Assembly (NCBI RefSeq): GCF_000020025.1 | Contig: NC_010628.1 | Span: 4,320,001-4,352,000, forward strand | DNA: 32,000 nt | Direction of reading: 5' to 3' | DNA from: Nostoc punctiforme PCC 73102 | GTDB lineage: Bacteria; Cyanobacteriota; Cyanobacteriia; Cyanobacteriales; Nostocaceae | In this document: positions 5-18,789 of the stretch, piece after piece | How the letters are laid out: every line of letters begins with the position of its first letter | How positions within the stretch are numbered: the stretch's first letter is position 1 | Position numbers and translations under genes: made by a program | Notes under the pieces: model-generated | Databases searched by the model: none | What the model was told of the DNA's origin: nothing | Seen by the model: only the letters and a program-made list of their open reading frames with translations

Positions 5-898
5 TCAAAAGTTGAGGTAACTTAGGAGAGAAAACAAGCGCCGACGATTATCGCTAAATGCTCTACGACCATGCAAAAATCTAGAATTATCAATCATTAC
101 TAAATCGCCGGGTTTCCAACGAATTTCTTGAGTTAAGCTATACATGACTTTCTCAATTTCCTCTATAGCTGCATCAGGTATTAACGAACCATCCTCAAAA
201 GTTAATGCTGATTCTAATTCCAAATTTACGGAGCCTTTCAGGTTACTATTGCCTGTGATAATGTCATTGACAAAGGCATTTTGATTACCATATTTTGTTT
301 GAAGCACAGCTGAACAAATATATTCTGTATATATAGACTCCTCTTGGTCGATTTGGTATTTTACATTATTAAAACCATCTAACACTCGTTTGGCATCAGA
401 TATAGTAGCATCTGAACCCAAAAAATGCTTCCATTTATCAGCAGGGAATTTATGAACAAACTTAATTTTTTTAGAAATAAATAACTTTCTTAACTCTTCA
501 CTTAATTTCTGCCAGACTTGAATACCATCCCAAAATAAAGTTTCGCCCCCTTCTGCTGCTGGTACAGTGCAGCAAAACCAAACAGCATCAGGTGAAAAGG
601 GAGAACTACCGTTTTCACGATGAGGGAGAATTTCATGCATTCCTATATCTACTAAACTGACAAACCCGTTTGGCTCAACCAGAGGTTTATCATCATCTCG
701 CGTGAGTCTAGAACTAAATTGTTCTGCAAACACTTGCATCAATTCATGGGTGATCCCAAACCCTCGAAATAGAATAATCCCAGATGACTTGAACATCTCC
801 TGAATTTTCGCAACAGAGAGGTTAAGAATATCTTTGCATTCATCGCTATAGATAATTTTGTTGGTACTGGTTTCTGGTAAATCGATTTGAATTGTCAT
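5..898 (-). CDS. TauD/TfdA-family Fe(II)/2-oxoglutarate dioxygenase, 297 aa
   Basis: Complete ORF. The iron-binding triad is readable in the translation: LPHRENG (H-x-E) plus a distal His in RFLHGRRAF. It lies on the same strand as the glycosyltransferase gene and 44 nt downstream of it, so it is the last visible gene of the NRPS operon. Confidence 0.8.
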   Translation of the reverse strand: MTIQIDLPETSTNKIIYSDECKDILNLSVAKIQEMFKSSGIILFRGFGITHELMQVFAEQFSSRLTRDDDKPLVEPNGFVSLVDIGMHEILPHRENGSSPFSPDAVWFCCTVPAAEGGETLFWDGIQVWQKLSEELRKLFISKKIKFVHKFPADKWKHFLGSDATISDAKRVLDGFNNVKYQIDQEESIYTEYICSAVLQTKYGNQNAFVNDIITGNSNLKGSVNLELESALTFEDGSLIPDAAIEEIEKVMYSLTQEIRWKPGDLVMIDNSRFLHGRRAFSDNRRRLFSLLSYLNF

Positions 899-942
899 AG
901 TTGTATTGCAAAACTAAAAATTATCTGTAGAAAATTTCATTT

Positions 943-2220
943 TTATACTTTGTTTGGCAAATGGCGATGAAAAGCTTCGATCGCTCGAACCACTCCATTT
1001 TCTGCTTGGATCTTTCGCCCCATTGCCTCTGCACGAGCTTGCATTGACTTGTCATTGGTGGCTAGTCGAATCGCATCTGCTAACCTCTTGGTAGATAATT
1101 GGTGTGGCAAAATCGGCTTTGGGCTTAGACCTAACTCTGCTACACGATGCGCCCAAAAAAATCGATCATCTCCACTGGGTATGGTTATAGAAGGGATACC
1201 CGATCGCACGCCATAAGCTAATGTACCAGCACCTCCATGATGCACAAGTGCTGCCATTTGCGGGAATAGCCAATCAAATGGCACCCATTCGGAAAGTTTA
1301 AAGACTTTATCTGATAAATCGAAATCCTCGCTGAGGCTGTTTTCTCCAGTGAGTTCTCCTGGTACTTGTAAGATACACCTTTGACCTGTCTGGGCGATCG
1401 CTGACAAGACCAATTTCAGTTCTTCCTCTGTTAAACCACGACCAGCAACGTACACTGGTGGCGACCCAATTGCAATAAAATCTACTAGGTCTACAGGTGG
1501 CTGCCAATTTTCAGGACAATCCATAAACCAGTAGCCGGTAACGTGCAACCAATCAGGCCATTCAGACGGTTTAGGTAGTAAAGATGGGCTGTAGCCGTAG
1601 AGAAAAGGTAGTTTTTGCTGGTGTAGACGATGAACTGGGCTTAACCACCAAGCGGTAGGAGTTAATTTTAGGACTTCCTGTCGCCACCGGTTTATCGGCT
1701 GTCTAACAGATCGCCATAAGAATCGATCGAATAAGAAGTAGGTTAGCCTGTTGTAGATTCCACCTAAACGCAATTCAATTGGTGCAGCAGGGTTAGGAAA
1801 AGCGCCTGTTGGACTAATAGGTGGGATACAGGCTGCATAACAAGGTACACCCAGCTTTTCGATGATGTCATAACCCAGCAATGAAAATTGACTCAAGATA
1901 ATTGCCTCTGCTCCCTGACAAAGATCGAGGAGTTTAAACAGGTAGCTATCTTCAAGAGGTTGCAGAACACTCCTAATATTATTGAAGATGTAAAAGGGGT
2001 TGGGATGAAACCATTTCCAGAATGGCTCTGTGGAAAATTCTTCTGCATGTAGATCCATACAAACACATTCCAGACCCCATCGGCTGATAAATTCCTGACG
2101 AGCCTGATTAGTAAAAACAACTAGCTTTACCACATGTCCTGCTTGTTGCAATCCCAGTCCTAAAGCAAGATAAGGTTGAAGATCTCCAAGGGAACCACCT
2201 GTAACAATCGTGATACGCAT
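943..2220 (-). CDS. GT1-family (GT-B fold, UGT/MGT/sterol-glucosyltransferase-like) glycosyltransferase, 425 aa
   Basis: N-terminal MRITIVTGGSLGDLQPYLALGLGLQQAGHVV and the C-terminal nucleotide-sugar motif VHHGGAGTLAYGVRSGIPSITIPSGDDRFFWA are typical of GT1 enzymes. The start ATG lies 4 nt after the NRPS stop. Confidence 0.8.
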   Translation of the reverse strand: MRITIVTGGSLGDLQPYLALGLGLQQAGHVVKLVVFTNQARQEFISRWGLECVCMDLHAEEFSTEPFWKWFHPNPFYIFNNIRSVLQPLEDSYLFKLLDLCQGAEAIILSQFSLLGYDIIEKLGVPCYAACIPPISPTGAFPNPAAPIELRLGGIYNRLTYFLFDRFLWRSVRQPINRWRQEVLKLTPTAWWLSPVHRLHQQKLPFLYGYSPSLLPKPSEWPDWLHVTGYWFMDCPENWQPPVDLVDFIAIGSPPVYVAGRGLTEEELKLVLSAIAQTGQRCILQVPGELTGENSLSEDFDLSDKVFKLSEWVPFDWLFPQMAALVHHGGAGTLAYGVRSGIPSITIPSGDDRFFWAHRVAELGLSPKPILPHQLSTKRLADAIRLATNDKSMQARAEAMGRKIQAENGVVRAIEAFHRHLPNKV

Positions 2221-2224
2221 ATTT

Positions 2225-5200
2225 TTATCTCTTTGTGCGAAGTTGTTTTTGGCGATTTATCACCTCTTTTTGCTTCCAAGCGCGATCGCGAACTTGCTCT
2301 ACTTCTAACTGTGCGTCTTTTCCCTCATTTAAATATTTCGCCAACGAATCTATAGTTGGATGCTCAAGCAGTTCAATAATTGATAAGTCTTGCTCCAACA
2401 GTTCCTTGAGTTGGCTATGAACTTGAGCAATTAACAACGAATGACCGCCTATGTCAAAAAAGTTGTCATGAATACCCACCTTTTCTAGATGAAGTACCTC
2501 TTGCCAAACAGCAGCAATTGTTTGTTCCAGCTCAGTAGTGGGTGGTAAATAAGTAACTTTCAACTCTGGTCGCAACTTTTCCACGACCGAGAGGGATTTC
2601 CTATCTATTTTACCATTAGAGGTTAATGGCAATGCATCCAGTTGTAAATAAACTGAGGGGACCATATACTCAGGTAGCTTTGGTTTGAGAAATTGACTCA
2701 GTTCGCTGATAGAAGTGGATAAATCTGCCCTCAAAACAATGTATGCAACTAAACGTTGGTTGCCTGAGACATCTTCATGCACCACAACTACAGACTCTTG
2801 CACACCCGGATGCTCTAAAAGAGCCGCTTCAATTTCTCCTAGTTCAATGCGGAAACCTCGAAGCTTGACTTGGTTATCAATCCGTCCCAGAAACTCAAGA
2901 GTCCCATCACAACGATAACGAGCCAAGTCGCCTGTTTTGTACAAACGCTCCCCTGGTTCATTGCTGAAGGAATTGGGAATAAACTTTTCGGCTGTCAGTT
3001 CAGGCAGATTCAGATAACCTCGTGCCATTCCTTGACCGCCAATGTGCAGTTCGCCTACAAGACCAATTGGCACTGGCTGCAAGTGTCGATCTAACACGTA
3101 AAGTTGGGTGTTGGCGATCGGATGACCAATAGGAATTGAGCCTGACTGCTGTTTGTTATTTACCTGGTAAATGCAACAGCCAACTACGGTTTCGGTTGGC
3201 CCGTATTCATTCACTAGTATGGTGTCAGGGGCATACTTTTGCCAGAAAGCAATGTTCTGCGCCAATAAATTTTCACCCCCGATGATAAAAGCTCGCGTCC
3301 GACCTGCTGCTTCTTGAGGAGAGAACTGTTGAGCCAATAACTCTAAATGAGCAGGTGTAAGTTTGACCAAGCTTAAATTAGAGCTTTGGCTAAGAGCAGT
3401 GTAAAGCATCTCGATGCCTTGGTTTTCTGGCAGCAGCTTTACTTGAGAACCCACTAGTAAGGGTGAAAATAGACTTGTAATTGTGAGGTCAAATCCTAAA
3501 GGTGAGTGAACTAGCGTCCCTGTTCCTTGCTCGACTGTGTAAGCTTGCGTACACCAACTTAGGTAATTAACTAGCCCTCGGTGGGGAATCAATGTTCCCT
3601 TGGGCTTGCCAGTGGAACCAGAGGTATAGATAATGTATGCCAAGTTTTCAGGGGTTGTTTGACTAACCGGGTTGGCTATATTTTCCTGGGCTATGTCTTC
3701 CCAATTAGTATCTAGGCAAATGACTTTGGTTCCCTTTGTGGGTAAGCTAGCTGCTAAATGCTGCTGAGTCAATAGTATCGGTACATTACTATCCGCGATG
3801 ATGTAGGCTTGTCGTTCCAGTGGATAGGTTGCTTCAATCGGTACGTAGGCTCCACCAGCTTTGAGAATGCCCAATACTACAACCATCATCAGTGGGGAAC
3901 GCTCTACACAAATCCCCACTAGTACATCTGGCCCAACTCCCAGTCGCTGGAGGTAGTAGGCGAGTTGATTTGCTCTGGCGTTGAGCGAACCATAGGTTAG
4001 TCGCTCCTTCCCAGATATCACGGCAATGTTATCTGGAGTTCGCTCTACTTGTTCTTGGAATAGATGGTGGATACACTTGTCATTTGGATAAATGGTTTTT
4101 GTATTGTTGAACTCAATCAGCAATTGCTGCCGGTGGCGATCGCTCAGAATCTCTAAGCGACTAATTACGGCTTCCGGATTATTGGCGACGCTTTCTAACA
4201 AAGTCTGAAATTGTCCCGCCAAACGTTTGATATCCTCAGTTGGGAATAAATTGGCATCATAGTGAAATTCGTAACCCAAAGAGTCTTCCCTACACAGACA
4301 AGAGAGTTTTACTTTAAATCTGTCAATATATGCGGACTGCTGATAAACGGAAAGTGATAAATTATTGTCTACAGAATACTTTGCTTGTCTGTGTTCAAAC
4401 TCGAAACAAAAGGGGAAGAAGGAAGTAGCTTCCCCAGTCTGTTCTTGGGTAAAATACTCCTGCCATTGAGCATTCTGATGGCTAAGTTCGTTAACTTGCT
4501 GCAAAATCTCGCTAAATGTCCAGTTTTCTTCCAGATGACAAACAAGCGGTAAATATTTTGCAAATAGCCCGAAAGCTGACTCTAATCCCTCATAGTTTCG
4601 ACCATCACAGACAGTACCAATCATAATCCTTGACTGTTGTGTGAGTCGCCAGAGGAAAATTGCAAAGCAAGTTAGTAAAACGACTTCTGTGGTAGTTTCA
4701 TACTTCTGGGCGATCGCTTTAATCTCTGCTGCTAACTCATCAGCGATCGCATCGGCAAGAAACTGAGGTGAGAATCCTGGTTCAATCGGAGGCTGGTTTT
4801 CGCTTGTGAGCTTTAAAGTAAAAAGATCGGTAAAATCTTGCTGACACCAATACTCTCTTCCAGCTTTTGTCTCTTCTGACTCAAGTAAGTCATTGAGAAT
4901 TTCCGATATATCAGCATACTGCATCGGTTCATCAAATAGCTGTTCGCCATCTAAGCAAGCTGCATAAGAAACACTGATTTCACGCACTAAATTTTTCAGC
5001 GTTCCGGCATCCGCATAGACAGCAGGCAAACCGATCAGCAATGTATATCTATCATCGGACAATTCAACCAAAGCCAGATGCAAAAGTGAATCTTGCTCAA
5101 AATCGGCAGCTAGCTGACTTACTTCCTGAAAAAGTGCCTCAATTTTACCTTCTTGTGCTTGCGGAGTCAGCTCCCTAAAATTATGCTCGTGAATTGATGG

Positions 5201-5485
5201 AAATATGCGATCGCTTCCTCTACCAACAATTCCTACAGGTAGGGGATCGCTAATAATTTGCAGGGGAATATCCATACCCGGCAAACAACGAAAAGTAGTA
5301 CGCAAAATTTCATGTCGATTTAAGAGATTTCCTAAAACCGTCTCGAAAATTTTTCTGTTGAAATTTCCCTCAATTTGGATAGCACACTGAGCGCGATAAG
5401 GTAGCGTTGCCTGCCCTTGTTGTAACAACCATAGATGCTTCTGCTGTGGTGAAAGTCGAAAACCTTTGATAACTTTCTTTTGCAT
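2225..5485 (-). CDS. Non-ribosomal peptide synthetase, single module: non-canonical C-like domain, adenylation domain, peptidyl carrier protein (1086 aa)
   Basis: A-domain core motifs: LAYIIYTSGSTGKPKG (A3), NEYGPTE (A5), YKTGDLARY (A7), GRIDNQVKLRGFRIELGEIE (A8), LPLTSNGKIDRK (A10). PCP motif: FFDIGGHSLL. N-terminal C-type motifs: SPQQKHLWLL and RHEILRTTF. There is no TE or terminal C domain. Confidence 0.92.
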   Translation of the reverse strand: MQKKVIKGFRLSPQQKHLWLLQQGQATLPYRAQCAIQIEGNFNRKIFETVLGNLLNRHEILRTTFRCLPGMDIPLQIISDPLPVGIVGRGSDRIFPSIHEHNFRELTPQAQEGKIEALFQEVSQLAADFEQDSLLHLALVELSDDRYTLLIGLPAVYADAGTLKNLVREISVSYAACLDGEQLFDEPMQYADISEILNDLLESEETKAGREYWCQQDFTDLFTLKLTSENQPPIEPGFSPQFLADAIADELAAEIKAIAQKYETTTEVVLLTCFAIFLWRLTQQSRIMIGTVCDGRNYEGLESAFGLFAKYLPLVCHLEENWTFSEILQQVNELSHQNAQWQEYFTQEQTGEATSFFPFCFEFEHRQAKYSVDNNLSLSVYQQSAYIDRFKVKLSCLCREDSLGYEFHYDANLFPTEDIKRLAGQFQTLLESVANNPEAVISRLEILSDRHRQQLLIEFNNTKTIYPNDKCIHHLFQEQVERTPDNIAVISGKERLTYGSLNARANQLAYYLQRLGVGPDVLVGICVERSPLMMVVVLGILKAGGAYVPIEATYPLERQAYIIADSNVPILLTQQHLAASLPTKGTKVICLDTNWEDIAQENIANPVSQTTPENLAYIIYTSGSTGKPKGTLIPHRGLVNYLSWCTQAYTVEQGTGTLVHSPLGFDLTITSLFSPLLVGSQVKLLPENQGIEMLYTALSQSSNLSLVKLTPAHLELLAQQFSPQEAAGRTRAFIIGGENLLAQNIAFWQKYAPDTILVNEYGPTETVVGCCIYQVNNKQQSGSIPIGHPIANTQLYVLDRHLQPVPIGLVGELHIGGQGMARGYLNLPELTAEKFIPNSFSNEPGERLYKTGDLARYRCDGTLEFLGRIDNQVKLRGFRIELGEIEAALLEHPGVQESVVVVHEDVSGNQRLVAYIVLRADLSTSISELSQFLKPKLPEYMVPSVYLQLDALPLTSNGKIDRKSLSVVEKLRPELKVTYLPPTTELEQTIAAVWQEVLHLEKVGIHDNFFDIGGHSLLIAQVHSQLKELLEQDLSIIELLEHPTIDSLAKYLNEGKDAQLEVEQVRDRAWKQKEVINRQKQLRTKR
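2336..2539 (-). other. Peptidyl carrier protein (T) domain
   Basis: IHDNFFDIGGHSLLIAQV, with the phosphopantetheine Ser codon at 2438-2440. Confidence 0.85.
2591..4078 (-). other. Adenylation domain, Asp/Asn-type pocket (boundaries approximate)
   Basis: A hand alignment to the GrsA-PheA reference positions gives the 10-residue code D-L-T-K-I-G-E-V-G-K, taken from FDLTIT, LVKLTP, FIIGGE, NEYGPTETVVG and GKIDRK. Confidence 0.8.
4151..5464 (-). other. C-domain-like region with degenerate catalytic motif (candidate 'interface'-type domain); boundaries approximate
   Basis: Where HHxxxDG is expected, the protein reads LLIGLPAVYADAGTL (nt 5003-5029). Both His and the Gly are replaced; only the Asp is kept. 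The flanking C1/C2-like motifs are present. Confidence 0.6.
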
Positions 5486-5508
5486 ATTTCTAGCCTGTAT
5501 TTTTTGCC

Positions 5509-6582
5509 CTAAATGGCTCTATGAATATAGGGTTCAGCCATTCCCACCACAATTTTTCGACAACCTACAAATGGCGCACGTCCATGAGCCACTAGCATAT
5601 TGTCTAGCATTAAAATATCTCCCTCCTGCCAAGGGAAAGTAAGCGTTTCTTGTTGATAGCAAGAGCGAATTTCATCTAACACAGAAGATTCAATGGTCGA
5701 ACCATCACCATAATAGGTATTTTGGGGAAGGTCTGACTCTCTAAACTCTGCTAAAAGAGACTCACGCATCGTTGATTCTAAGCTGGATACGTGAAAAAAA
5801 GCAGCGTGATTAAACCAGAGTATTTCATTAGTTATTGGATGTTTTGTAACAGCCTGACGAACCTGTTTCGTTCTCAAGAAATCACTGTCTTTCCATTCAG
5901 TCTCAATACCATTTTTGCGACAGTATTCTTCGACTTCTAGCTTGCTCGTAGTTTGAAAAACTGTTTGCCAGGGAAGACCAAATCCGTTACCAAAGTTGCG
6001 AACATACATCACCTGCTTTTGGATAAATAGTTCTCTAATTTTTGGGTTGATCTGCTGGAAAACTTTTCTCACATCGGCAATTGGTGTTTCTCCTCCCTGC
6101 TGCGGCGCTGTGATGCAAAAAAAGAATATTTTTAAAGGCCATGTATGCTGGTAAGAATTTTCGTTGTGTAGAAAAATACTTTGGCTAGCAGGGTAATCAG
6201 TTGATGTATAAATATTACCATTTACGTGACTGCGGGGCGAAGAACGTTCTCGATACTCTAGTAACTCCCCCGACACAGATCCGATGAACTCCTCAAACTC
6301 AGCTACTCCATTTATCTTAAAGTTCCGAAAAAGTATTCCTCCATATTTCAGCAATTCTGTTTCGATAAAAGACCGATTGCGTGTAGCCCAAACTGCGAGA
6401 TTGACTCCTTCAACAGCAGGCTTGACTATTAAAGGTAAAAACTTTCCAGCCTGAATAAATTCTGTTTTGATTAATCCTTGTTGGGACAAGCTCATAGCTT
6501 GCCGCTTTAGGCTTGGCAACTTTTTGATCTCAAGCTTGTCGGATGGAGATTTTTTCATAATTACTGACTGCTGGGAATTCAC
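5509..6582 (-). CDS. Stand-alone TauD/SyrP-like Fe(II)/2-oxoglutarate hydroxylase (candidate carrier-protein-tethered Asp/Asn beta-hydroxylase), 357 aa
   Basis: FLHNENSY (H-x-E), GGETPIADVRKV and MLVAHGRAPF motifs. It sits 23 nt upstream of the NRPS module, between the two synthetase genes. Confidence 0.8.
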   Translation of the reverse strand: MNSQQSVIMKKSPSDKLEIKKLPSLKRQAMSLSQQGLIKTEFIQAGKFLPLIVKPAVEGVNLAVWATRNRSFIETELLKYGGILFRNFKINGVAEFEEFIGSVSGELLEYRERSSPRSHVNGNIYTSTDYPASQSIFLHNENSYQHTWPLKIFFFCITAPQQGGETPIADVRKVFQQINPKIRELFIQKQVMYVRNFGNGFGLPWQTVFQTTSKLEVEEYCRKNGIETEWKDSDFLRTKQVRQAVTKHPITNEILWFNHAAFFHVSSLESTMRESLLAEFRESDLPQNTYYGDGSTIESSVLDEIRSCYQQETLTFPWQEGDILMLDNMLVAHGRAPFVGCRKIVVGMAEPYIHRAI

Positions 6583-6737
6583 ACTACAACTAATTAGCTT
6601 GATTAGATCAAAAAATTGACAGGATATGTCACTTTCTTACAAACCATTGACATAACTGAAATCTTAAACGTTTGTCTGAACTAGAAAACTTTAGGAGCTT
6701 CCAAATTAAAAAATATCCAAAAATCCCATACAACAAT

Positions 6738-6812
6738 CCTCTCTTTTCTTTCTCCGTGCTCTCTGCGCCTCTGTGGTTCGTTATCAATAAAAATCATTTT
6801 CAAAACTGAAAT
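6738..6812. repeat. Dispersed short repeat, copy 1 (family also at 15721-15825 and 22045-22130)
   Basis: The exact 19-mer CTCTGCGCCTCTGTGGTTC at 6761-6779 recurs at 22063-22081. The flanks (CTCTTTTCT... upstream, GGTTCGTT..ATCAAT..AAAA downstream) are shared with the 15.7-kb copy. Confidence 0.7.
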
Positions 6813-6876
6813 ACGACTGCTATAAAAACTTTGTTTTCCCTAAAAAAATAACTCATTAACCTCAACCTTTCGAAAT

Positions 6877-9800: not shown

Positions 9801-10413
9801 AAGTCACGGCAGCATTATGTAGTAGGTTGCCATGACTAAGCATGACACCTTTAGGAGTGCCTGTAGAACCAGATGTATATTGCAGAAACGCTAATATCTG
9901 CGCGTCAATTTCAGGTTGTTGCCAAGAATCTTCTATGCCTTGTGCCAGGTTGTCAGTTGTCAGCCAACATAAACTTCCCTGGTCTGTGTGTTTTGTCAGT
10001 AAAGACTTGACGTTAGGGAGGAGCGTTGTTGTCGTTAAAATAATTGCTGCTTGTGCATCTGCGATAATTGCCTGAATTCTGGGCGTATTACGTTGATTGC
10101 GCGGCGGGTAAGCCGGAACTGCCACGACTCCAGCATATAAGCAACCGAAAAATGCTGTTAAGTAATCCAATCCCGGAGGATAGAGCAATATAGCACGTTC
10201 CCCACTTAAACCAAGGGCTTGGAGTTGAGATGCTATAGCCCGACTGCGACGATCCAGCTCATAGTAAGTTAGCGTTGATTCCTGAGTTTCTCCATCTTCG
10301 AGGAAGGTGAATGCTTGTGTGTGCGGCTGTGTCGAACTGCGATCGCGCAGAATATCGACGACTGTCGTACACTGATGGGAAATTTGGGGAAATATATTGA
10401 GAATTAAAGACAT
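6877..10413 (-). CDS. Fatty acyl-AMP ligase - acyl carrier protein - condensation domain tri-domain loading protein (about 1178 aa from the preferred start)
   Basis: FAAL motifs LQYTSGSTGTPKGVMLSHGNL, YGMAEATL and RTGDLGF. ACP motif LGLDSLRVIEL. Intact C motif MHHIVSDGWS (nt 7891-7914). The ORF track extends to 10545, but the ATG at 10413 (MSLILNIF...) has GAGG about 8 nt upstream, and family similarity starts just after it. Confidence 0.9.
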   Translation of the reverse strand: MSLILNIFPQISHQCTTVVDILRDRSSTQPHTQAFTFLEDGETQESTLTYYELDRRSRAIASQLQALGLSGERAILLYPPGLDYLTAFFGCLYAGVVAVPAYPPRNQRNTPRIQAIIADAQAAIILTTTTLLPNVKSLLTKHTDQGSLCWLTTDNLAQGIEDSWQQPEIDAQILAFLQYTSGSTGTPKGVMLSHGNLLHNAAVTYQIMEHSPESQFVSWLPVYHDMGLIGGILQPLYGGFPCVLMSPTSFLQRPYRWLQAISQYRGTTSGGPNFAYELCIQRITPEQKSTLDLSSWSVAFNGAEPIRSETLERFSATFAECGFRPEGFYPCYGMAEATLMVSGGIKKALPPCKTVAKSALERHQVIEAATSEDIQTFVSCGQSVPQQQIVIAHPETLKPCQPDEVGEIWVSGPSIGQGYWNRPDETKQTFHASLKGPDSRLFLRTGDLGFLDKGELFITGRAKDLIIIRGRNLYPQDLELTVERSHSSLRSGSGAAFSVEAENEERLVVVQELEFRAKPNIEEVIAAIRQAVAEEYEIQVYAVVLIKPGTIPKTSSGKIQRRATKADFLANKLEVVGSSIQKTINIDGNENRLQREALLALTPRKQQPLLESYLQKQIARVFAIPLHEINLQQPLTPLGLDSLRVIELKNRIEDDLEVSVPIADFFEGINITELATKILAKLTTAACIPSVTLTQNRKTTDFHPLSFAQQRLWFLDQLQPGNPFYNISVVMHFQGVLNIAALEQSFNEIVRRHEALRTVFTTVDRKPMQVICPDFTLTLPMVNLRDIPEIHRAAEVHWLATQEARQPFDLTQGSLLRVTLLECSEQEHIMLLTMHHIVSDGWSMGVLFRELTILYEVYSKGQLTPLPELPIQYADYTIWQRQWLEGEVLESQLTYWKKQLNNLPILQLPTDHPRPVVQTFQGRRQSLVLSKSLTDALKVLSQQQEVTLFMTLLATFKMLLHWYTEQEEIVVGTDIANRNQAKTELLIGFFINQLVLRINLSGNPTFEELLERVREVTIGAYTHQEMPFDKLVEVLNPQRTLSSTPLFQVKLVLQNVPMPPLALSGLTASVTEVESQTAKYDLLLNLTEIEQGLMGWMEYSTDLFEAVTITRLLSHFQTLLHTVVVQPKIRLNALKEILVTADREKQIAKEREIKEASVHKFKNVKRKAIEEELALEKN
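6991..8313 (-). other. Canonical condensation domain (lipo-initiation type by position), boundaries approximate
   Basis: LSFAQQRLWFLDQL, RRHEALRTVF and HHIVSDGWS all present. Confidence 0.8.
8371..8613 (-). other. Acyl carrier protein domain
   Basis: PLTPLGLDSLRVIELKNRIE, with the Ser codon at 8488-8490. Confidence 0.8.
8692..10368 (-). other. FAAL (fatty acyl-AMP ligase) domain, boundaries approximate
   Basis: The N-terminal TVVDILRDRSSTQPHTQAFTFLEDGETQESTLTYYELDRRSRAIASQL pattern and AMP-binding cores are typical of FAAL starter units. Confidence 0.8.
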
Positions 10414-11237
10414 TTTCCGCCTCAAGCAATCAGATGCACGTAAACAATGGTGGAATCGGGGAAACCAGATCGGAGCAGGGGAAAACCCCATTGATAAATC
10501 TAGGCGGCTCGGTAAAAAGACATCAAGAAAGCTTGTTGCAACCAATCTCGGTGCAAATCTTTTTTCCTTTTTCCATAAATAAATTTAGTTGCTCTGCGAT
10601 CGCCTACAGAGAGTTTTCTCCCCTTGCTTTCGTAACCGACCCAGCTTCAAGTGCCCTCCTTTTTGGTCAGTCACCTAAAATTTTGGCTCAGGTATATTGA
10701 CAGTTATTTTTAATTAGCACTAGCACTATATAGCAACTTTACTGCCTTTAGCAACTTTAGAGTAATAGAGAATACTTATCAGTAAGAGTTAATAAATTAG
10801 CTGCTACTATTCGATAAACTTCTTTGTATCTCATGGTAAATACAAATGAGCGTGTACGATAAGGTCTTTCTTAATACTGATATACGACCCTAAATGCTAC
10901 ATATTTTAATTACTCAGTAATAGTCCTAAAACTCTTGCTTTATCAAGACAAGTCCAAAAAATTAATGTAACTCAATCGCTCTACTTCTAGCTTAGTCTTG
11001 GTTTATCCCATTAGGTACAAGATATCAGAATATCGACTTGATACTATAAAAATCTTGTGTTAATTGTTACTAGCTAAGAGCAGTAGTATTGTTGAAATTT
11101 TTCTTCGATGGTGTAAATTATTATTTGTTTTTATTTTATTAAGCTTGCTTTTTTAATGCAAATAGATTTCAATACTCTTTAAATGCTAGTATCTGTCAAC
11201 TAGATATTGAGTGGTGTAACGGAGTCAGAAAACAATA

Positions 11238-11507
11238 ATGAAGTCTAAACAGTTTGTTCTCGGTCTATGGCTGACAGGTGCGATCGTGGTGTTGATGACA
11301 GAACCTACTAGAAGTGAGCAAATATCATCACTTCTAGTTCATAAGAGTATAGTGTCCACCGACGCTAACAAAGGCTTTATTCAGCAAATACGCCTGATTA
11401 CCAAAGAGCAGACTGTTGAACCAATCCAACAAATTCGGCAAGTAAGTGAGATAGAGAATCCAGCCAAGAGCGACTAATTATCATTAGTGCAGTCGCCAAT
11501 ACAATAA
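11238..11507 (+). pseudogene. Probable N-terminal remnant of a TonB-dependent receptor (signal peptide plus SEIE-type leader), broken by an in-frame stop; alternatively a small secreted protein
   Basis: MKSKQFVLGLWLTGAIVVLM is signal-peptide-like. The end reads IRQVSEIENPAKSD-stop-LSLVQSPIQ-stop. This parallels the EISRLQELNRSTRTVKEWLAQ leader of the intact receptor at 12819. By recollection, it also matches the LSEIExPxxSAxxLVQSP leader common in Nostocales receptors. Confidence 0.4.
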
Positions 11508-11627
11508 ACACGCGTTCCCAAGAAATCGTGCAAGTTTACGATTATCAGATTCAGTAACCATGTGGTTTTTATCACCTTGGTTTCTGCTGATTAATATACT
11601 GTTGTTTTTGCTCAAGTAGTCTCTACC

Positions 11628-12767
11628 ATGCCTGCGAAAAAGCTCCGTCATTTGACCTTTATTCTGCATCGCATCCTGGGTTTTGCGATCGGATTAATTG
11701 CCATCCCACTTAGCTTAACTGGCAGCTTGATCGTTTTCCAGCACGAAATCAACGAGTTTCAACTGCATCAACAGTTTGGTGCTATTTTGCCCAAAGGCGA
11801 TCGCTTATCACTGGAAGTCGTTCTGGATATTGTCAAAGCTGCCTATAGCAAGCTGCCGGAAATGGCATTGCAAAGGGTTTATTTCCCTACTAAACTGGAC
11901 GATTTCTTTAATGTCGTCATCTCAATTCAGGGCAATGATTGGGTAGAAGTCTACGTCAACCCTTATACGGGGGCAATTCTGGGCAACAGTCTGGATCCCA
12001 ATGCCATACAGGGCTTTCTCCAATTTGTTTATGAACTCCATACCTCTTTGAAATTGGGCGATCTGGGTTTACAGATTGTTGGTATCGTGGGTTTAGTGAC
12101 GAGCATCGTTGTGATCTTGGGAATTATCTTGTGGCCCGGTTGGCGCAAGCTGATAGCAGGTTTCAAAATTAAGTGGGATGCCCACCCCAAGCGGTTTAAC
12201 TTCGATCTGCACAAGGTATCTGGTATTACTACCGCCATATTTTTACTGTTCACATTTTTCACTGGATTTGCCTGGAATTTGGGCTATGTTGACCCTCTGA
12301 TTCGTGCCATTACCTTGAGTCCTTCGCTTCCTGAGCTTGTCTCTGTGCCGTTAGCAGGTCAATCTCCCCTACCTCTGAGCCAGCAGATAAAAACGGCTCA
12401 ACTTGCCCTACCGGACGGAGCATTGCGGAGCATTGACTTAACGACAGATCCGAAAGCGCCTCTGCGATTGCGGATGAAGCTGCCCCAAGAGGTGGAGGAA
12501 TACGGTAAGAGCAATGTCTATCTGGATCAATACAGTGGTCAGATTTTACGAGTTGATAATTCATTAAAGGCATCGTTAGGCGACAAGATTCTCAATTCCT
12601 TCGAGCCACTGCACTACGGCACCTTCGGCGGCTTACCCACTCGCATTATCTATGTCTTCTTTGGTCTGTCTCCGTTAATTCTATTTATTACTGGCTTTGT
12701 AATGTGGTGGTATCGCAAACCCAAGCAGAAAGATGATTATTCTCATAAACAGAGTTATATAAAATAA
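11628..12767 (+). CDS. PepSY-associated TM-helix protein (PiuB/FoxB-type membrane protein of siderophore uptake loci), 379 aa
   Basis: N-terminal LRHLTFILHRILGFAIGLIAIPLSLTGSLIVFQHEI, internal TM helices, and a C-terminal FITGFVMWWYRK anchor. It lies immediately upstream of the receptor gene. Confidence 0.85.
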   Translation: MPAKKLRHLTFILHRILGFAIGLIAIPLSLTGSLIVFQHEINEFQLHQQFGAILPKGDRLSLEVVLDIVKAAYSKLPEMALQRVYFPTKLDDFFNVVISIQGNDWVEVYVNPYTGAILGNSLDPNAIQGFLQFVYELHTSLKLGDLGLQIVGIVGLVTSIVVILGIILWPGWRKLIAGFKIKWDAHPKRFNFDLHKVSGITTAIFLLFTFFTGFAWNLGYVDPLIRAITLSPSLPELVSVPLAGQSPLPLSQQIKTAQLALPDGALRSIDLTTDPKAPLRLRMKLPQEVEEYGKSNVYLDQYSGQILRVDNSLKASLGDKILNSFEPLHYGTFGGLPTRIIYVFFGLSPLILFITGFVMWWYRKPKQKDDYSHKQSYIK

Positions 12768-12818
12768 TTCTCAAATAATCGGCTTTGTTTTAAGAAGTAC
12801 TATTAGGTGTGTGGAGTG

Positions 12819-15413
12819 ATGAAACTGTTGCGATCGCTGTTTATTTCCTGTTTTTTTATTGTTGTGATTATACAACCAACTCAGGCAAAGGAAGTAACTG
12901 AAATTTCTCGTCTACAGGAACTAAACCGTTCCACAAGAACAGTCAAAGAATGGTTAGCTCAGATAGAACAACAGAACCCTCCTGACCAAAAAGAGAAACA
13001 GGAGAGTGAAGTTGTACAAGTTACCTCAGTGAAAGCAAACCCCACCGATAAGGGTTTAGAGGTGATTTTACAAACCTCGAAAGGACAAGAATTGCAAGTA
13101 GTGAATCGCAGTTCGGGCAATAACTTCATCACTGATATTCCCAATGCCCAACTGCGTTTACCGAACGGTGACGCTTTTACATTTCGCTCTACTAGACCAA
13201 TTGCAGGTGTTAGCGAAATAACGGTAACAAACTTTGATGCTCAGACTATTCGGGTAAGTGTGACGGGTGAGGCGGGTGTACCCATTGTTGAGTTATTTGA
13301 CAGTCCGGATGAGGGTATTATCTTCTCTGTAGCTAGTTCTGCATCTTCTGCACAACAGCCGCAGCAACAGCCTCAAACGCAAAACCCTACCCCTTCAGGA
13401 CAGAGTGAGGGGTCACAACAAACACAGCCAACTCAACCATCAGCACAGAATGATGAACCAATTGAACTTGTGGTTACAGGTGAGCAAGATGGATATGCTG
13501 TGCCAGAAGCATCAACTGCAACTAAAACTGATACACCTTTACGTGATATTCCCCAGTCAATTCAGGTAATTCCCCAACAGGTGATCAGGGATCAAGGAAT
13601 CACACGAATTACGGATGCGACTCGCAATGTTTCAGGCACAACGATCGCATCTGGCTACGGCAACCTGATCGGAGATGTTCGGGTTCGTGGCTTCTCTAGT
13701 GGTTTCTTAAGAGATGGATTTGCCAGTCAGCCTTTCTTCATCGATGGCGGCAATATTGAACAAGTAGAGGTGCTAAAGGGGCCTGCTTCGGTACTATACG
13801 GGGCATCAGAGCCAGGTGGAATCGTGAATTATGTCACCAAGAAACCCTTGAGTAATCCTTACTATGCAGTCGATTTAACTGCCGGAAGCTACGACTTCTA
13901 CAAAAGTGCGATCGATTTGACTGGGCCACTTAGCAATGACAAACTATTACTGTATCGCTTGAATGTTTCCTATGAAAACTCCGGTAGCTACAGAGATTTC
14001 ATTGACAATGATATTGTTTTTATCGCTCCCGTTGTCACCTATCAAGTTAGCGACTCAACCGACATCACCTTAGCCTATGAATATCTAAACGCGAAACTAG
14101 GGTTCGATCGCGGTTTTCAACCTTTCTCTGCCTTTTTACAGGTGCCCAGAAATCTGAATATCGCAGAAACTGACGATTTTCAAGATATTGAGCAGCATCG
14201 CCTCAATTTAACACTAAACCATCGGTTTAATCAGAATCTACGCCTCAGAAGCGGCTTTCTCTACCTCTCTGAGAAGCAAGACAGTTTTGTAACTCAACCC
14301 GGAGAACTGGACGCAGACGGTCGCACGTTAACAGACCGATCGTACTTTGGCGGCCCGAGTAACGCTGACAACTATGCATTGCAAACGGATTTGATTGGTG
14401 ACTTTAAAACCGGTTCCATTACCCATCAACTACTGCTGGGGTTGGAATGGCGCAAAAGAGACCAGGCTGATCGGGGTATCAGTGGAGTTTATGAGGGGTC
14501 ATTCGATATTTTCAATCCAGCCTATGGCTTACCACGCATAGCAGATCCCAATAGTTTCTTCGAGCAAACTACCATCACCACTGGCATCTACCTGCAAGAC
14601 CAGGTGACATTGCTCCCAAATCTCAAATTACTAGCTGGCGGCAGATATGATTTTGTGGAATACAGTAGTGGCGATGGTCAATCCGCGCCGACTGAATTTT
14701 ATGATAGTGCTTTTTCACCTCGCATTGGCATTGTCTATCAACCGATTGAACCGATTTCGCTCTATGCCAGCTACAGTAGTTCCTTTGTCCCCAATAATTC
14801 TAGAACTGCCAGTGGAGAACCGCTAGAGCCTTCGCGCGGGACTCAGTATGAAGTAGGCATTAAAGCTGAACTTTTTGATAAACGACTGTCAGCCACACTC
14901 GCAGTCTATGACATCACCAAAACCAACATTCCGACTACAGATCCTGATGACGATCAATTCTTGATCGCAGTTGGAGAAGTGAAAAGCCGAGGAATTGAAC
15001 TGGATATTGCGGGGGAAATTTCACCGGGTTGGAAAGTGATTGCTTCTGGCTATTTAAATGATGCCTTTGTGAGCAAAGATAACAATCTACCCGAAGGTCG
15101 CCGCTTGACAAATGCGCCAACTCAGGGGGCGAGTTTGTGGACAAACTATGAAATTCAAAAGGGTGACTTGAGAGGTTTGGGAATTGGCGCAGGGCTATTT
15201 TTCGTAGGCGATCGCACTGCCAACATCGACGATCCATTAACCCTTCCCTCTTATGTCAGAACTGACGCTTCTATCTCTTATAAACGCGATAATTGGAGGG
15301 CTGCGCTCAACTTTAAAAATATCTTCAATATTAAATATTACGAATCAAACGACTACCTCGTCTTCCCACAAGCACCATTTACTTTACAGGGAACCATTTC
15401 TGTAGAGTTTTGA
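12819..15413 (+). CDS. TonB-dependent siderophore receptor with N-terminal AMIN-type extension
   Basis: Signal peptide MKLLRSLFISCFFIVVIIQPTQA. AMIN-like segment VVQVTSVKANPTDKGLEVILQT...ITVTNFDAQTIRVSVTG. Q/P-rich linker. Plug TDTPLRDIPQSIQVIPQQVIRDQG...EVLKGPASVLYG. Beta-barrel ending in a terminal Phe (ISVEF). The ORF track starts at the GTG at 12807; the ATG at 12819 gives a cleaner signal peptide. Confidence 0.9.
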   Translation: MKLLRSLFISCFFIVVIIQPTQAKEVTEISRLQELNRSTRTVKEWLAQIEQQNPPDQKEKQESEVVQVTSVKANPTDKGLEVILQTSKGQELQVVNRSSGNNFITDIPNAQLRLPNGDAFTFRSTRPIAGVSEITVTNFDAQTIRVSVTGEAGVPIVELFDSPDEGIIFSVASSASSAQQPQQQPQTQNPTPSGQSEGSQQTQPTQPSAQNDEPIELVVTGEQDGYAVPEASTATKTDTPLRDIPQSIQVIPQQVIRDQGITRITDATRNVSGTTIASGYGNLIGDVRVRGFSSGFLRDGFASQPFFIDGGNIEQVEVLKGPASVLYGASEPGGIVNYVTKKPLSNPYYAVDLTAGSYDFYKSAIDLTGPLSNDKLLLYRLNVSYENSGSYRDFIDNDIVFIAPVVTYQVSDSTDITLAYEYLNAKLGFDRGFQPFSAFLQVPRNLNIAETDDFQDIEQHRLNLTLNHRFNQNLRLRSGFLYLSEKQDSFVTQPGELDADGRTLTDRSYFGGPSNADNYALQTDLIGDFKTGSITHQLLLGLEWRKRDQADRGISGVYEGSFDIFNPAYGLPRIADPNSFFEQTTITTGIYLQDQVTLLPNLKLLAGGRYDFVEYSSGDGQSAPTEFYDSAFSPRIGIVYQPIEPISLYASYSSSFVPNNSRTASGEPLEPSRGTQYEVGIKAELFDKRLSATLAVYDITKTNIPTTDPDDDQFLIAVGEVKSRGIELDIAGEISPGWKVIASGYLNDAFVSKDNNLPEGRRLTNAPTQGASLWTNYEIQKGDLRGLGIGAGLFFVGDRTANIDDPLTLPSYVRTDASISYKRDNWRAALNFKNIFNIKYYESNDYLVFPQAPFTLQGTISVEF

Positions 15414-15424
15414 CCCAACCCTAA

Positions 15425-15517
15425 CCTCTCCTTATAGCTGGTTGTGTAATGTGGCGGTATCGCTATCGGGCAAAATCTAGTGCAAGAAGGCAGAATAAAA
15501 TAAAGTTCGTACAGTAA
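15425..15517 (+). pseudogene. C-terminal remnant of a second PepSY-TM gene
   Basis: The frame reads PLLIAGCVMWRYRYRAK..., versus the intact PepSY C-terminus SPLILFITGFVMWWYRKPK. At the DNA level, tgtaatgtggCggtatcgc (15443-15461) versus tgtaatgtggTggtatcgc in the intact gene (about 12696-12714) matches at 18 of 19 positions. A stop codon lies immediately upstream at 15422-15424. Confidence 0.45.
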
Positions 15518-15720
15518 GCTTTTTGAACTAGATAGTTATTTCCGCTTTCCTGCACTAGTAGTCTGTCAAGGTAGTAATGAAAAGTTTGTAGCAAGCACAA
15601 AGCATGCTTAGAAACATGGACTAAAGTCCTTACTACAGAATTGTTTACTCCTCGATTCAAAGCTGACAGACTACTAACGATCTGTCACAAAAATTTTGAT
15701 AGGTAAATCAGTTTTAAATT

Positions 15721-15825
15721 TCTCTTTTCTAACTCTTAACTTCTCTGCGAGACGCTCTTGCTAGCTTGCTTTGACCTAGGAGTATGAGGTTCGTTCTCTT
15801 ATCAATCAAAATTAATCTGACAGGC
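15721..15825. repeat. Dispersed short repeat, copy 2, carrying a 38-nt internal insertion
   Basis: TTCTCTGCG (15741-15749) and GGTTCGTT (15788-15795) are separated by 38 nt here (agacgctcttgctagcttgctttgacctaggagtatga), but by only 7 nt (cctctgt) in the copy at 6759-6787. Confidence 0.6.
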
Positions 15826-15912
15826 TACTAGTAGAAAATTTCCTATCTTAGAACAATCAAAGAAGCTTTGAAATTAACTGATAGTTAATCACCGCAAATT
15901 TATAATCTAAAC

Positions 15913-17220
15913 TTGATACAAGTGCGTACTCTTATTATTGTTTGGCTTAGTCAAATAGTTTCCATCGTTGGCAGTAACATGACCGGATTTGCTTTCACTA
16001 TTTGGGTGTGGGAACTCACAGGTCAAGCTACGTCTTTAGCCTTGTTTGCTTTATTTGCACAAGTGCCGCAAATTTTTATTATTCCCATAGCTGGGGTGAT
16101 TGTAGATCGCTGGAACCGTAAATATTTAATGATGGTTGGTGACACAGTAAGCGGGCTGTTGACCATAACTGTCTTACTACTTTACATAACTCATGATTTG
16201 CAATTATGGCATTTATATTTGGCTGTAGGTGTCAAAGGAACTTTTCAGCAATTTCAAAAACTGGCATTCTCGGCATCAGTATCAATGATGGTGCCAAAGC
16301 AGCAGTACAGTCGCGCTAGCAGCATCAGTTTCCTGGCAACCTCTAGTTCTAATATCATTGCACCAGCGTTAGCAGGTGCCCTCTATGTAGTCATTGGTCT
16401 TGTTGGCATCTTAATTATTGATATCACTACTTTTGCGATCGCTTTACTTACATTGCTGCTAGTACATATACCGCAACCTAAGATTACAAAAGCGGGTACG
16501 CGTGATAGCAAAAACCTGAAGCAGGATCTCTATTTTGGCTGGCGCTATGTTGCTGTACGCCCCGGACTGCTTGCGATGCTAGTATTAGTGTTGCTCTTCG
16601 TTTTTGCCTATGAATTTGGCGAATCACTTGTTACTCCCCTAATTCTGACACGCACTGGTAATGATAGTAAAGTATTAGGTGTTATATTTTCGACAGCAGG
16701 GTTAGGTGGCATTATTGGGGCGTTGCTCGTGGGCATTAGGGGTAATTTGCAGCCCCGAATACATGCAGTGTTGCTAGGTATGGCTGGTGCTGGTTTGAGC
16801 CAAACAGTGTTTGGTCTAGGGAGAGTACCGTTAATTTGGTTTCCTGCCCAATTCTGTTCAGCTCTCAATTTTCCAATAATGGGCAGTGCCGATGACGCTA
16901 TATGGTTAAGCAAGATAAAACCTGAGTTACAGGGACGTGTTTTTGCAATGCGTTCTATGGTGATGCCGATTAGTACGGTTTTAGCAAACTTAATAGCTGG
17001 GCCACTAGCTGATGGTGTTTTTGAACCAGCAATGAAGCCTGATGGTAGTCTTGCCCCCATATTTGGTTGGATATTTGGCACAGGAGGTGGTGCAGGCATA
17101 GCACTCCTGTATGTCATTTCTTCCCTATGTATGTTAGCGATTGGCTTAGGTGGATATGCCTTTCGTGTGTTGCGTGACGTAGAAATCATCTTGCCAGATT
17201 ATGATGTCGGTGCAGAGTAG
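15913..17220 (+). CDS. MFS transporter (EntS/DHA3-like, candidate siderophore exporter), 435 aa
   Basis: About 12 predicted hydrophobic helices and the VDRWNRK loop after TM2, typical of MFS_3/EntS-like exporters. There is no ATG near the N-terminus, so the start is TTG 15913 or GTG 15922. A TATAAT hexamer sits at 15901-15906. Confidence 0.8.
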   Translation: MIQVRTLIIVWLSQIVSIVGSNMTGFAFTIWVWELTGQATSLALFALFAQVPQIFIIPIAGVIVDRWNRKYLMMVGDTVSGLLTITVLLLYITHDLQLWHLYLAVGVKGTFQQFQKLAFSASVSMMVPKQQYSRASSISFLATSSSNIIAPALAGALYVVIGLVGILIIDITTFAIALLTLLLVHIPQPKITKAGTRDSKNLKQDLYFGWRYVAVRPGLLAMLVLVLLFVFAYEFGESLVTPLILTRTGNDSKVLGVIFSTAGLGGIIGALLVGIRGNLQPRIHAVLLGMAGAGLSQTVFGLGRVPLIWFPAQFCSALNFPIMGSADDAIWLSKIKPELQGRVFAMRSMVMPISTVLANLIAGPLADGVFEPAMKPDGSLAPIFGWIFGTGGGAGIALLYVISSLCMLAIGLGGYAFRVLRDVEIILPDYDVGAE

Positions 17221-18756: not shown

Positions 18757-18789
18757 AACTCTTAATATATCGACAATTCATAAAATATA

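Follow-up and report, generated by a model that had tools for sequence, protein, structure and literature searches.

The initiation end of the pks4 cluster of Nostoc punctiforme PCC 73102 resembles cyanochelin-type siderophore systems

Introduction

Characterised cyanobacterial siderophores are few; the cyanochelin C preprint counts 24 structures. The described cyanochelins (A-C) all carry an N-terminal five-membered heterocycle made by a cyclisation domain, and their iron ligands are two β-OH-Asp residues, or β-OH-Asp plus DHABA, supplied by Asp-activating A domains. Four markers have been given for cyanochelin-like clusters: a nonribosomal peptide synthetase (NRPS), a TonB siderophore transporter nearby, a fatty acyl-AMP ligase (FAAL) and a β-OH-Asp interface domain (preprint 10.64898/2026.07.24.740629). 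In Anabaena sp. PCC 7120, all2641-all2649 form a FurA-regulated NRPS/polyketide synthase (PKS) siderophore cluster with FurA boxes upstream and inside (PMC4005646). Here we analyse a 32-kb stretch of DNA from the model symbiotic cyanobacterium Nostoc punctiforme PCC 73102 (NC_010628.1, positions 4,320,001 to 4,352,000; referred to in full as the window), in which positions 5-17220 carry one end of the gene cluster pks4.

The pks4 cluster was described in 2020 as an orphan PKS/NRPS line of 19 genes with a product stated to be unknown, and was studied with an Npun_R3452-GFP reporter (PMC7660261). It is named in three reports (PMC7660261, PMC9324945, PMC11890772), with a span of Npun_R3414/R3425 to Npun_R3452/3. 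Transcripts of Npun_R3425-R3452 and cluster proteins have been detected and are inducible (PMC7660261, PMC11890772). [quoted passage not shown] An earlier note on this DNA, written from the letters alone, had read positions 5-17220 as a siderophore island. This reading is supported by homology, by recurring synteny, by the uniqueness of the receptor in the genome and by the published proteomics, and we consider it likely that pks4 has a siderophore function.

Identity of the locus

Exact-sequence look-ups found nine window proteins that were residue-identical to entries of Nostoc punctiforme PCC 73102 (ATCC 29133). Seven of these, listed below as TauD2, the GT1 glycosyltransferase, the interface-adenylation-thiolation (I-A-T) synthetase, TauD1, the FAAL protein, the PepSY protein and the receptor, corresponded in order to ACC81857 to ACC81863, and two genes downstream corresponded to ACC81865 and ACC81866. 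ACC81866 is named Npun_F3457 at source, and the remaining tags were assigned by accession order from this one named tag, which gives Npun_R3448-R3452 for the minus-strand genes and Npun_F3453-F3457 for those on the plus strand. This makes the receptor gene Npun_F3454 and the FAAL gene Npun_R3452, the tags under which the receptor (NpunF3454) and the reporter fusion (Npun_R3452) appear in published work. Positions 5-17220 are the initiation end of pks4, a hybrid NRPS-PKS cluster, and comprise Npun_R3448-R3452 together with the divergently transcribed uptake and export genes Npun_F3453-F3455.

The earlier note could not map this gene order onto a described cluster, and the exact protein matches now do so. 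Its domain calls all held in the six-frame open reading frame (ORF) list and in Pfam; these features are gene-sized, with E-values of 1e-35 to 1e-113, and are not due to chance. The literature has already named and flagged the locus, which is therefore not novel as a discovery, and a standard cluster-mining tool would probably flag it. The sequence is the same as that of the published pks4. What is added here is a domain-level reading (interface domains, A-domain codes and hydroxylase clades), together with the lost methyltransferases, a transposable-element insertion and a receptor remnant.

Predicted fatty-acyl priming and Asx hydroxylation

The minus-strand genes are given below in the direction of transcription. 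Condensation and acyl carrier protein domains are abbreviated C and ACP.

6877-10413, minus strand: Npun_R3452 (ACC81861), FAAL-ACP-C lipo-initiation protein (Pfam and NCBIfam)
5509-6558 (ORF to 6582), minus strand: Npun_R3451 (ACC81860), TauD1, a stand-alone cyanochelin-type iron/2-oxoglutarate-dependent (Fe/2OG) hydroxylase (Pfam TauD, 3e-48)
2225-5485, minus strand: Npun_R3450 (ACC81859), interface-like (His-less, C-like) domain followed by A and T (Pfam Condensation-like, AMP-binding, PP-binding)
943-2220, minus strand: Npun_R3449 (ACC81858), GT1-family glycosyltransferase (Pfam EryCIII-like_C, Glyco_transf_28, UDPGT)
899-942, no strand: junction at which a MycE/TylE-like O-methyltransferase gene is absent (blastn breakpoints and junction sequences)
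5-898, minus strand: Npun_R3448 (ACC81857), TauD2, an Fe/2OG oxygenase of a separate cyanobacterial clade (Pfam TauD, 6e-35)

Npun_R3452 contains AMP-binding, DIP2-like C-terminal, PP-binding and Condensation domains, the last with the HHIVSDG motif of a catalytic domain. The annotated start is the ATG at 10413, and the longest ORF extends to a TTG at 10545. Its best NCBIfam matches were FAAL families at 438-462 bits, each under its equivalog or subfamily cut-off. For comparison with cyanochelin B we used the cluster on plasmid 2 of Leptolyngbya sp. NIES-3755 (AP017310.1); the FAAL region was 51% identical to BAU16016 of that cluster. The C domain was 57-59% identical to the other two pks4 C domains that precede hydroxylated Asp/Asn (Asx) modules.

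TauD1 carries the Fe-binding HxE...H motif and is 73% identical to the TauD of Nostoc UHCC 0926. Its clade was judged by surrogate identity to the two cyanochelin B hydroxylases (51% to the stand-alone BAU16062 and 48% to the fused one). The N-terminal domain of Npun_R3450 lacks HHxxxDG and has LPAVYADAGT at that place, consistent with the earlier call of 2225-5485 as C-like. This domain was 41-43% identical to the other interface-type domains compared and 22-29% identical to catalytic C domains; within the cyanochelin B cluster it reached 42% to the N-terminal domain of BAU16061 and 33% to that of BAU16012. The order C, TauD1, I-A-T was seen directly in the window from ORFs and Pfam. A thioesterase domain was not found in Npun_R3450 by the Pfam scan of the window. 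The cyanochelin-like chemistry proposed earlier is supported by the identities of TauD1 to BAU16062, of the His-less domain to BAU16061 and of the transporter described below to CctC. All four cyanochelin-like markers are present: NRPS C, A and T domains in 2225-5485 and 6877-10413, the receptor at 12819-15413, the FAAL, and the interface domain, as judged by identity and loss of the motif.

The A domain of Npun_R3450 has the Asx-type pocket code DLTKIGEVGK, which was read manually from the translation after automatic alignment had misplaced position 331. The pocket had been described earlier as Asp/Asn-type; the Asx assignment stood, but the code points to Asn and not to Asp.

The best NCBIfam matches of Npun_R3449 were macrolide glycosyltransferase families, under cut-off. 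At 899-942, between this gene and TauD2, a gene of ~0.94 kb is cleanly absent that is present in N. punctiforme UO1, in an uncultured Nostoc metagenome-assembled genome (MAG) and in Rhizonema PD37. The UO1 protein matches PDB 3ssm (E 3e-60), a MycE/TylE-like sugar O-methyltransferase. An independent Rhizonema-like contig (L012) likewise lacks this gene, which looks like a variable accessory one. The position of a sugar O-methyltransferase after GT1 in relatives supports action of GT1 on the product, and predicts a less methylated congener in PCC 73102. The TPR-methyltransferase at 18790-19773 was considered as a replacement for the lost gene and rejected, as there was no detectable similarity.

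TauD2 was 22-27% identical to TauD1-type enzymes and 24% identical to TauD1 of the window itself, confirming that two different TauD enzymes are present, as the earlier note had stated. Among its closer relatives are the TauD enzymes encoded after the FAAL-primed first module in Nostoc NIES-3756 (56%) and NIES-4103 (55%). The clade has >100 homologues at roughly 50-60% identity, and the organism-named ones are all cyanobacterial.

Predicted uptake and export genes

The divergent region and the plus-strand genes are as follows.

10414-11237, no strand: divergent AT-rich intergenic region, 35% GC
11238-11510, plus strand: probable receptor-gene remnant, with a 79-codon ORF (11238-11477) that has a signal peptide
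11628-12767, plus strand: Npun_F3453 (ACC81862), PepSY_TM membrane protein (PF03929, 212 bits, whole profile)
12819-15413, plus strand: Npun_F3454 (ACC81863), TonB-dependent siderophore receptor with AMIN, Plug and barrel domains (Pfam)
15913-17220, plus strand: Npun_F3455, MFS_3/EntS-like major facilitator superfamily (MFS) transporter, predicted TTG start (Pfam MFS_1, MFS_3)

Npun_F3454 passes the NCBIfam model TIGR01783, "TonB-dependent siderophore receptor", at 389 bits (cut-off 223). It is 54% identical to the cluster-adjacent receptor of Nostoc UHCC 0926 and 42% identical to that of NIES-3756. Npun_F3455 is 48% identical to the cyanochelin MFS protein CctC (BAU16019, a putative exporter) and 55% identical to the NIES-3756 cluster MFS, and by this homology it is likely an exporter. 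In the translation of Npun_F3453 four His residues stand in the motifs LHR, LHT, LHK and LHYG, which may bind haem as in the FoxB structure, and members of its 90% cluster carry the Joint Genome Institute (JGI) name "iron-regulated membrane protein". We infer that Npun_F3453 is a FoxB-like periplasmic ferric-siderophore reductase. The Pfam and TIGR01783 results confirm the plus-strand set of PepSY protein, AMIN-type receptor and EntS-like MFS transporter recognised earlier.

That these genes belong with the cluster is borne out by synteny and by the literature. A divergent AMIN-type receptor lies beside the NIES-3756, NIES-4103 and UHCC 0926 clusters, and an MFS gene beside the first two. In a census of TonB-dependent transporters with two entries for N. 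punctiforme, NpunF3454 is the sole FhuA-type receptor (PMC2771747), and it is the receptor that was co-up-regulated with the cluster (PMC11890772).

The ATG codons of the FAAL and PepSY genes lie 1214 bp apart. The roughly 700-bp AT-rich region of the earlier note is the ORF-free core of this gap at 10546-11237 (692 bp, 32% GC); the gap also contains the 79-codon ORF, which had been missed. Positions 11238-11510 match the N-terminus of the receptor divergent to the UHCC 0926 cluster (49% over 91 aa, E 9e-15), and the remainder of that receptor aligns with 12885-15410 at the 54% identity given above. The 79-codon ORF is probably, from this alignment, the 5' remnant of an older cluster-adjacent TonB receptor gene that was partly displaced by the PepSY-receptor unit.

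Metagenome-derived Nostocales contigs (L019-L026) carry tandem arrays in which TonB-dependent receptor (TBDR) and PepSY genes alternate, TBDR-PepSY-TBDR-PepSY. The arrays reach four pairs, a pattern that suggests joint duplication of receptor and reductase as a two-gene unit.

Continuation of the operon to the left

More modules had been expected to the left of position 1, and the operon does continue there in the same strain. All 23 short-read contigs examined that carry the exact TauD2 end 88 nt past its stop codon, and the sequence departs from that of relatives 11 nt past the stop. These contig ends overlap by 29 nt with contigs that start at a block of methyltransferase, aminotransferase and PKS genes, and sample SRR12750592 has both. 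Joining the two (contig L001 10906-10982 to contig L027 1-86) places a 134-nt element 11 nt past the TauD2 stop, inside the operon. Imperfect terminal inverted repeats, CAATAC...GTATTG, mark the element, and the target duplication is 10 bp long (ATCTATCAGT). UO1 and the Nostoc MAG lack it, and a related Nostoc contig (L015) has partial copies at other places. Given the terminal repeats, the target duplication and the partial copies, we regard it as an insertion resembling a miniature inverted-repeat transposable element (MITE). It interrupts every short-read contig examined. Truncation of the cluster at the window edge was considered and rejected, because the break is this element and the next contig overlaps by 29 nt.

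Accession numbering and relatives give the same picture. The FkbH protein of PCC 73102 is ACC81850, seven accessions from TauD2 (ACC81857), a spacing that fits continuation, and ACC81844-81850 are contiguous with ACC81857 in the numbering of this strain. Three relatives continue directly past TauD2: N. punctiforme UO1 (97% DNA identity), the Nostoc MAG and Rhizonema PD37. In all three the order is a class-III aminotransferase, a PKS with ketosynthase, acyltransferase and ACP domains (KS-AT-ACP), and a block of FkbH, 3-hydroxyacyl-CoA dehydrogenase (3HCDH), ACP and acyl-CoA dehydrogenase (ACAD). Left of the MITE-like insertion, PCC 73102 itself carries, in order (E, epimerization domain):

1: methyltransferase, 248 aa
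2: aminotransferase, 485 aa; best NCBIfam matches are glutamate-1-semialdehyde aminomutase (GSA) families, all under cut-off
3: KS-AT-ACP, 1085 aa
4: FkbM-type methyltransferase, in two fragments of 78 and 85 codons (L027 5796-6433)
5: FkbH cassette
6: stand-alone C domain, 528 aa
7: second TauD1-type hydroxylase, 348 aa
8: I-A-T-E, 1531 aa, again with the code DLTKIGEVGK

Genes beyond the I-A-T-E protein were read from a genome that is 98.6% identical over that stretch; the three of its proteins that were checked group at >=90% with ACC81844-81846. Farther left this genome carries:

1: C-T-C-TauD, 1356 aa
2: methyltransferase
3: third I-A-T, 1075 aa, code DLTKIGHVGK
4: KS-AT, 975 aa
5: ACP-aminotransferase-C-A-T, 1757 aa
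6: further large PKS

Three hydroxylase-associated I-A modules are thus found in pks4. Two, including that of the window, have the Asn-type code DLTKIGEVGK, and one has the Asp-type code DLTKIGHVGK. A block of the methoxymalonyl/hydroxymalonyl-ACP type (FkbH-FkbJ-FkbK-FkbI) is present in the same strain (L027), with an FkbH-domain protein (TIGR01686, 292 bits, cut-off 147), a free-standing ACP, a 3HCDH and an ACAD. The FkbM gene is fragmented in PCC 73102, UO1 and a JGI genome, and intact in the Nostoc MAG (L007) and Rhizonema PD37 (L009); in the European Nucleotide Archive metagenome contig L012 it is intact and fused to the PKS. This pattern suggests that the extender in N. punctiforme is hydroxymalonyl and not methoxymalonyl. 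Four downstream proteins (1356, 1075, 975 and 1757 aa) were screened over residues 1-400 for the cyclisation motif DxxxxDxxS, and it was not found; the I-A-T proteins also lack the HHxxxDG motif of catalytic C domains. As a query, the N-terminal 303 aa of the downstream NRPS of Rhizonema matched only stand-alone C proteins of 520 aa.

Candidate regulatory sites

Sites were scored against the Anabaena FurA consensus (PMC4005646).

12761-12779, plus strand: candidate FurA box AAAATAATTCTCAAATAAT, 15/19 to the consensus, ~40 nt upstream of the receptor start codon

Only one other 15/19 match occurs in the 32-kb window, and a 14/19 match at 10392-10410 overlaps the first FAAL codons. A scan for E. 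coli Fur boxes gave no strong site, the intergenic best being 13/19. In a sigma-70 promoter and terminator scan of the intergenic region the hexamers were not above shuffle expectation, and Rfam and tRNA scans of the window found nothing.

Remaining genes of the window

Downstream of the MFS gene lies a pair of genes.

17401-19773, plus strand: Npun_F3456 and Npun_F3457, a second GT1-type glycosyltransferase and a TPR plus Methyltransf_24 protein (18790-19773) (Pfam)

The same order is found in N. punctiforme UO1, by accession numbering. The pair has 34% GC, against about 43% in the cluster, and the second glycosyltransferase (Npun_F3456) is 29% identical to the first over 94 aa only. Its membership of pks4 is uncertain.

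Farther right, a gene at 25533-26357 encodes a SAM hydroxide adenosyltransferase family protein (SAM_HAT_N/C, with a fold related to fluorinase and chlorinase), and stands alone between the genes for an 837-aa Rce1-like membrane protein and an AAA ATPase. The latter, which has a winged-helix domain, adjoins a protein with a Pvc16_N domain (26634-29893, minus strand). Genes of this kind are seen at the end of contractile-injection-system (eCIS/PVC-like) loci, the remainder of which would lie rightward. Near the right edge are two tandem arrays, one at 31290-31554 (75 bp x 3.5 copies) and one at 31715-32000 (60 bp x 4.8 copies) that crosses the edge. The repeat region has a GC skew of -0.20 and an AT skew of +0.24, and its plus strand may code for a repeat protein rich in Pro and Gln.

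Discussion

Our best explanation of the locus as a whole combines the initiation end of pks4 with a mechanism for siderophore assembly, export and uptake, and we hold it to be quite probable. The FAAL would adenylate a fatty acid and load it onto the ACP, while the A domain of Npun_R3450 would place Asx (Asn by the pocket code) on its own T domain. The non-catalytic interface domain would then recruit TauD1 for β-hydroxylation of the tethered residue, and the C domain of Npun_R3452 would N-acylate it. From there the chain would pass to the KS-AT-ACP module, fed with hydroxymalonyl-ACP by the FkbH/3HCDH/ACP/ACAD cassette and served by a GSA-type aminotransferase. Two more hydroxylated Asx modules, one with an Asp-type code as in cyanochelin B, and then further PKS and NRPS modules would extend it. 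GT1 would attach a sugar and TauD2 would add a second hydroxyl. The MFS protein would export the product, the AMIN-type receptor would re-import the ferric complex, and the PepSY_TM protein would reduce it and free the iron in the periplasm. The molecule is likely a new glycosylated, hydroxymalonate-extended variant of cyanochelin-type chemistry.

A more specific proposal can be made tentatively, and we think it possible but rather doubtful. In this proposal the pks4 product represents a new siderophore class, a glycosylated N-acylated peptide-polyketide whose ligands are β-hydroxy-Asn and/or hydroxymalonate-derived α-hydroxy-β-amino units plus a single β-hydroxy-Asp. It would be made in a patterned, density-dependent manner and so would also act as a public good or as a signal, both within filaments and in symbiosis. 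Its uptake would rely on the single FhuA-type receptor together with a PepSY reductase, not on an ABC importer.

Several observations weigh against a siderophore role. The visible A domain is Asn-type rather than Asp-type, since it has Glu at position 322 (in the Stachelhaus code we take E322 to specify Asn and H322 Asp), so that its residue is more likely β-hydroxy-Asn, as judged from the code. To our knowledge β-hydroxy-Asn is not an established Fe(III) ligand. The second I-A module also has E322, whereas the third and the Asp domains of cyanochelin B have H322. The alignment of Npun_F3454 with CctA is confined to the N-terminal ~300 aa, at a distant 33% identity, and no gene for a periplasmic binding protein or ABC permease was found in the window. 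The closest homologues of the PepSY protein and receptor in other genera stand in TBDR-PepSY arrays without NRPS genes in the flanks examined. An MFS homologue was not found in those flanks either, and for these reasons the MFS gene is the more cluster-specific of the transport genes. The FurA boxes are modest for AT-rich DNA, and the intergenic maximum was reached by most shuffles. In published accounts no pks4 product has been isolated, and pks4 expression is tied to cell density and to patterned single cells, not to iron alone (PMC7660261); a combination of nostoclide and nostovalerolactone induces it (PMC9324945).

Much of this would also fit a different role, in which pks4 makes a glycosylated lipopeptide-polyketide mainly not for iron, such as a density or differentiation signal, a surfactant or an antifungal, and the receptor-PepSY pair is merely an adjacent (xeno)siderophore uptake unit. 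The patterned and density-dependent expression, the induction by nostoclide plus nostovalerolactone (PMC7660261, PMC9324945), the Asn-type codes in 2/3 of the hydroxylated modules and the array homologues free of NRPS genes all favour it, as do the genes for glycosylation and sugar O-methylation, which are typical of bioactive glycolipopeptides. However, the hydroxylase/interface cassette and the MFS protein are homologous to those of a proven siderophore cluster, and three related Nostoc clusters likewise have a divergent AMIN-type receptor next to them, two of these with an MFS gene as well. The remnant at 11238-11510 indicates that a receptor gene has long stood at this position, the present receptor is the only one of FhuA type in the genome, and the cluster is co-up-regulated with an iron-limitation marker. 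We consider this role unlikely.

It is less probable still that pks4 is partly decayed in PCC 73102, a laboratory strain domesticated long ago, and yields a less decorated congener or nothing. Such decay could be read from the missing sugar O-methyltransferase gene (present in UO1, the Nostoc MAG and Rhizonema PD37), from the broken FkbM gene (intact in L007, L009 and L012) and from the MITE inside the operon. Yet all large synthetase ORFs examined are intact, transcripts of Npun_R3425-R3452 and cluster proteins are detected and inducible, and the O-methyltransferase is lacking from an independent Rhizonema-like contig as well, as expected of a variable accessory gene. An N-acyl-D-Asn prodrug motif of the colibactin/zwittermicin type was also considered, for the FAAL-Asn logic and the hydroxymalonyl cassette, and was dropped: the first module has no E domain, the window has no ClbP-like peptidase, and homology points to cyanochelin-type modules. 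The idea that the five visible minus-strand genes form a self-contained or truncated path to a glycosylated N-acyl-β-hydroxy-Asx, with nothing functional leftward, drew on the uniform contig ends 88 nt past TauD2, the divergence from relatives at 11 nt, the missing tailoring gene and the lack of a thioesterase in the window, and it is refuted by the MITE-like nature of the break with its 10-bp target duplications, by the 29-nt overlap in the same samples with a contig carrying the methyltransferase-aminotransferase-PKS genes and the rest, and by the contiguity of ACC81844-81850 with ACC81857.

If pks4 is a siderophore system, the locus governs high-affinity iron acquisition in N. punctiforme, both free-living and plant-associated. 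A glycosylated, hydroxymalonate-extended relative of the cyanochelins would widen cyanobacterial siderophore chemistry. The domain map offers handles for knockouts and for mass prediction in liquid chromatography-mass spectrometry: the three hydroxylase/interface modules, the Asn and Asp pockets and the lost methyltransferases.

Comparison with known systems

The Anabaena cluster all2641-all2649 resembles pks4 by description: both are large hybrid NRPS/PKS clusters of Nostocales with a link to iron limitation. Proteobacterial systems of the TBH_Asp type (Reitz et al. 2019, as represented in PMC12971057) share with pks4 a stand-alone TauD and a non-catalytic C-like domain before an Asx-type A domain, and a lipopeptide line beside siderophore transport genes. 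They differ in that the cyanobacterial hydroxylases fall in separate clades (CyanoBH_Asp1/2, PMC12971057), and in that the pocket in the pks4 window is Asn-type.

Uncharacterised clusters of other Nostoc strains also resemble pks4. The FAAL-ACP-C region of pks4 is 61% identical to that of Nostoc sp. NIES-3756 (plasmid pNOS3756_1). In NIES-3756 and NIES-4103, FAAL-ACP-C-A-T is followed by a TauD2-type oxygenase (55-56% identity) and then by PKS, with a pocket of the same type (DMTKIGEVGK) and, as in pks4, a divergent AMIN-type receptor and an MFS gene alongside. NIES-3756 also has the C, TauD1, I-A-T arrangement, and the plasmid cluster of Nostoc UHCC 0926 has a divergent receptor too. However, the first module in NIES-3756 and NIES-4103 is a single fused FAAL-ACP-C-A-T with a catalytic C domain, and there is no interface domain or TauD1 at that position. 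No glycosyltransferase is found there, and the annotated NIES-3756 stretch has no FkbH cassette.

The cyanochelin B cluster shares with pks4 its FAAL priming, a homologous cassette of C, TauD and His-less C-like-A-T, and, farther along pks4, a fused C-TauD followed by I-A(DLTKIGHVGK)-T. The back-to-back layout noted earlier for pks4 is the same in both, with the first biosynthetic gene facing an AMIN-type receptor, about 600 bp apart in the cyanochelin cluster. In pks4 the first residue is itself predicted to be a hydroxylated Asx that is N-acylated directly, and two modules have Asn-type codes. The pks4 cluster also encodes a GT1 glycosyltransferase, a TauD enzyme of a second clade, a hydroxymalonyl cassette with FkbH, and aminotransferases of the GSA type, and it carries a PepSY_TM protein where the cyanochelin cluster has the FecBCD-type components CctB/E/F.

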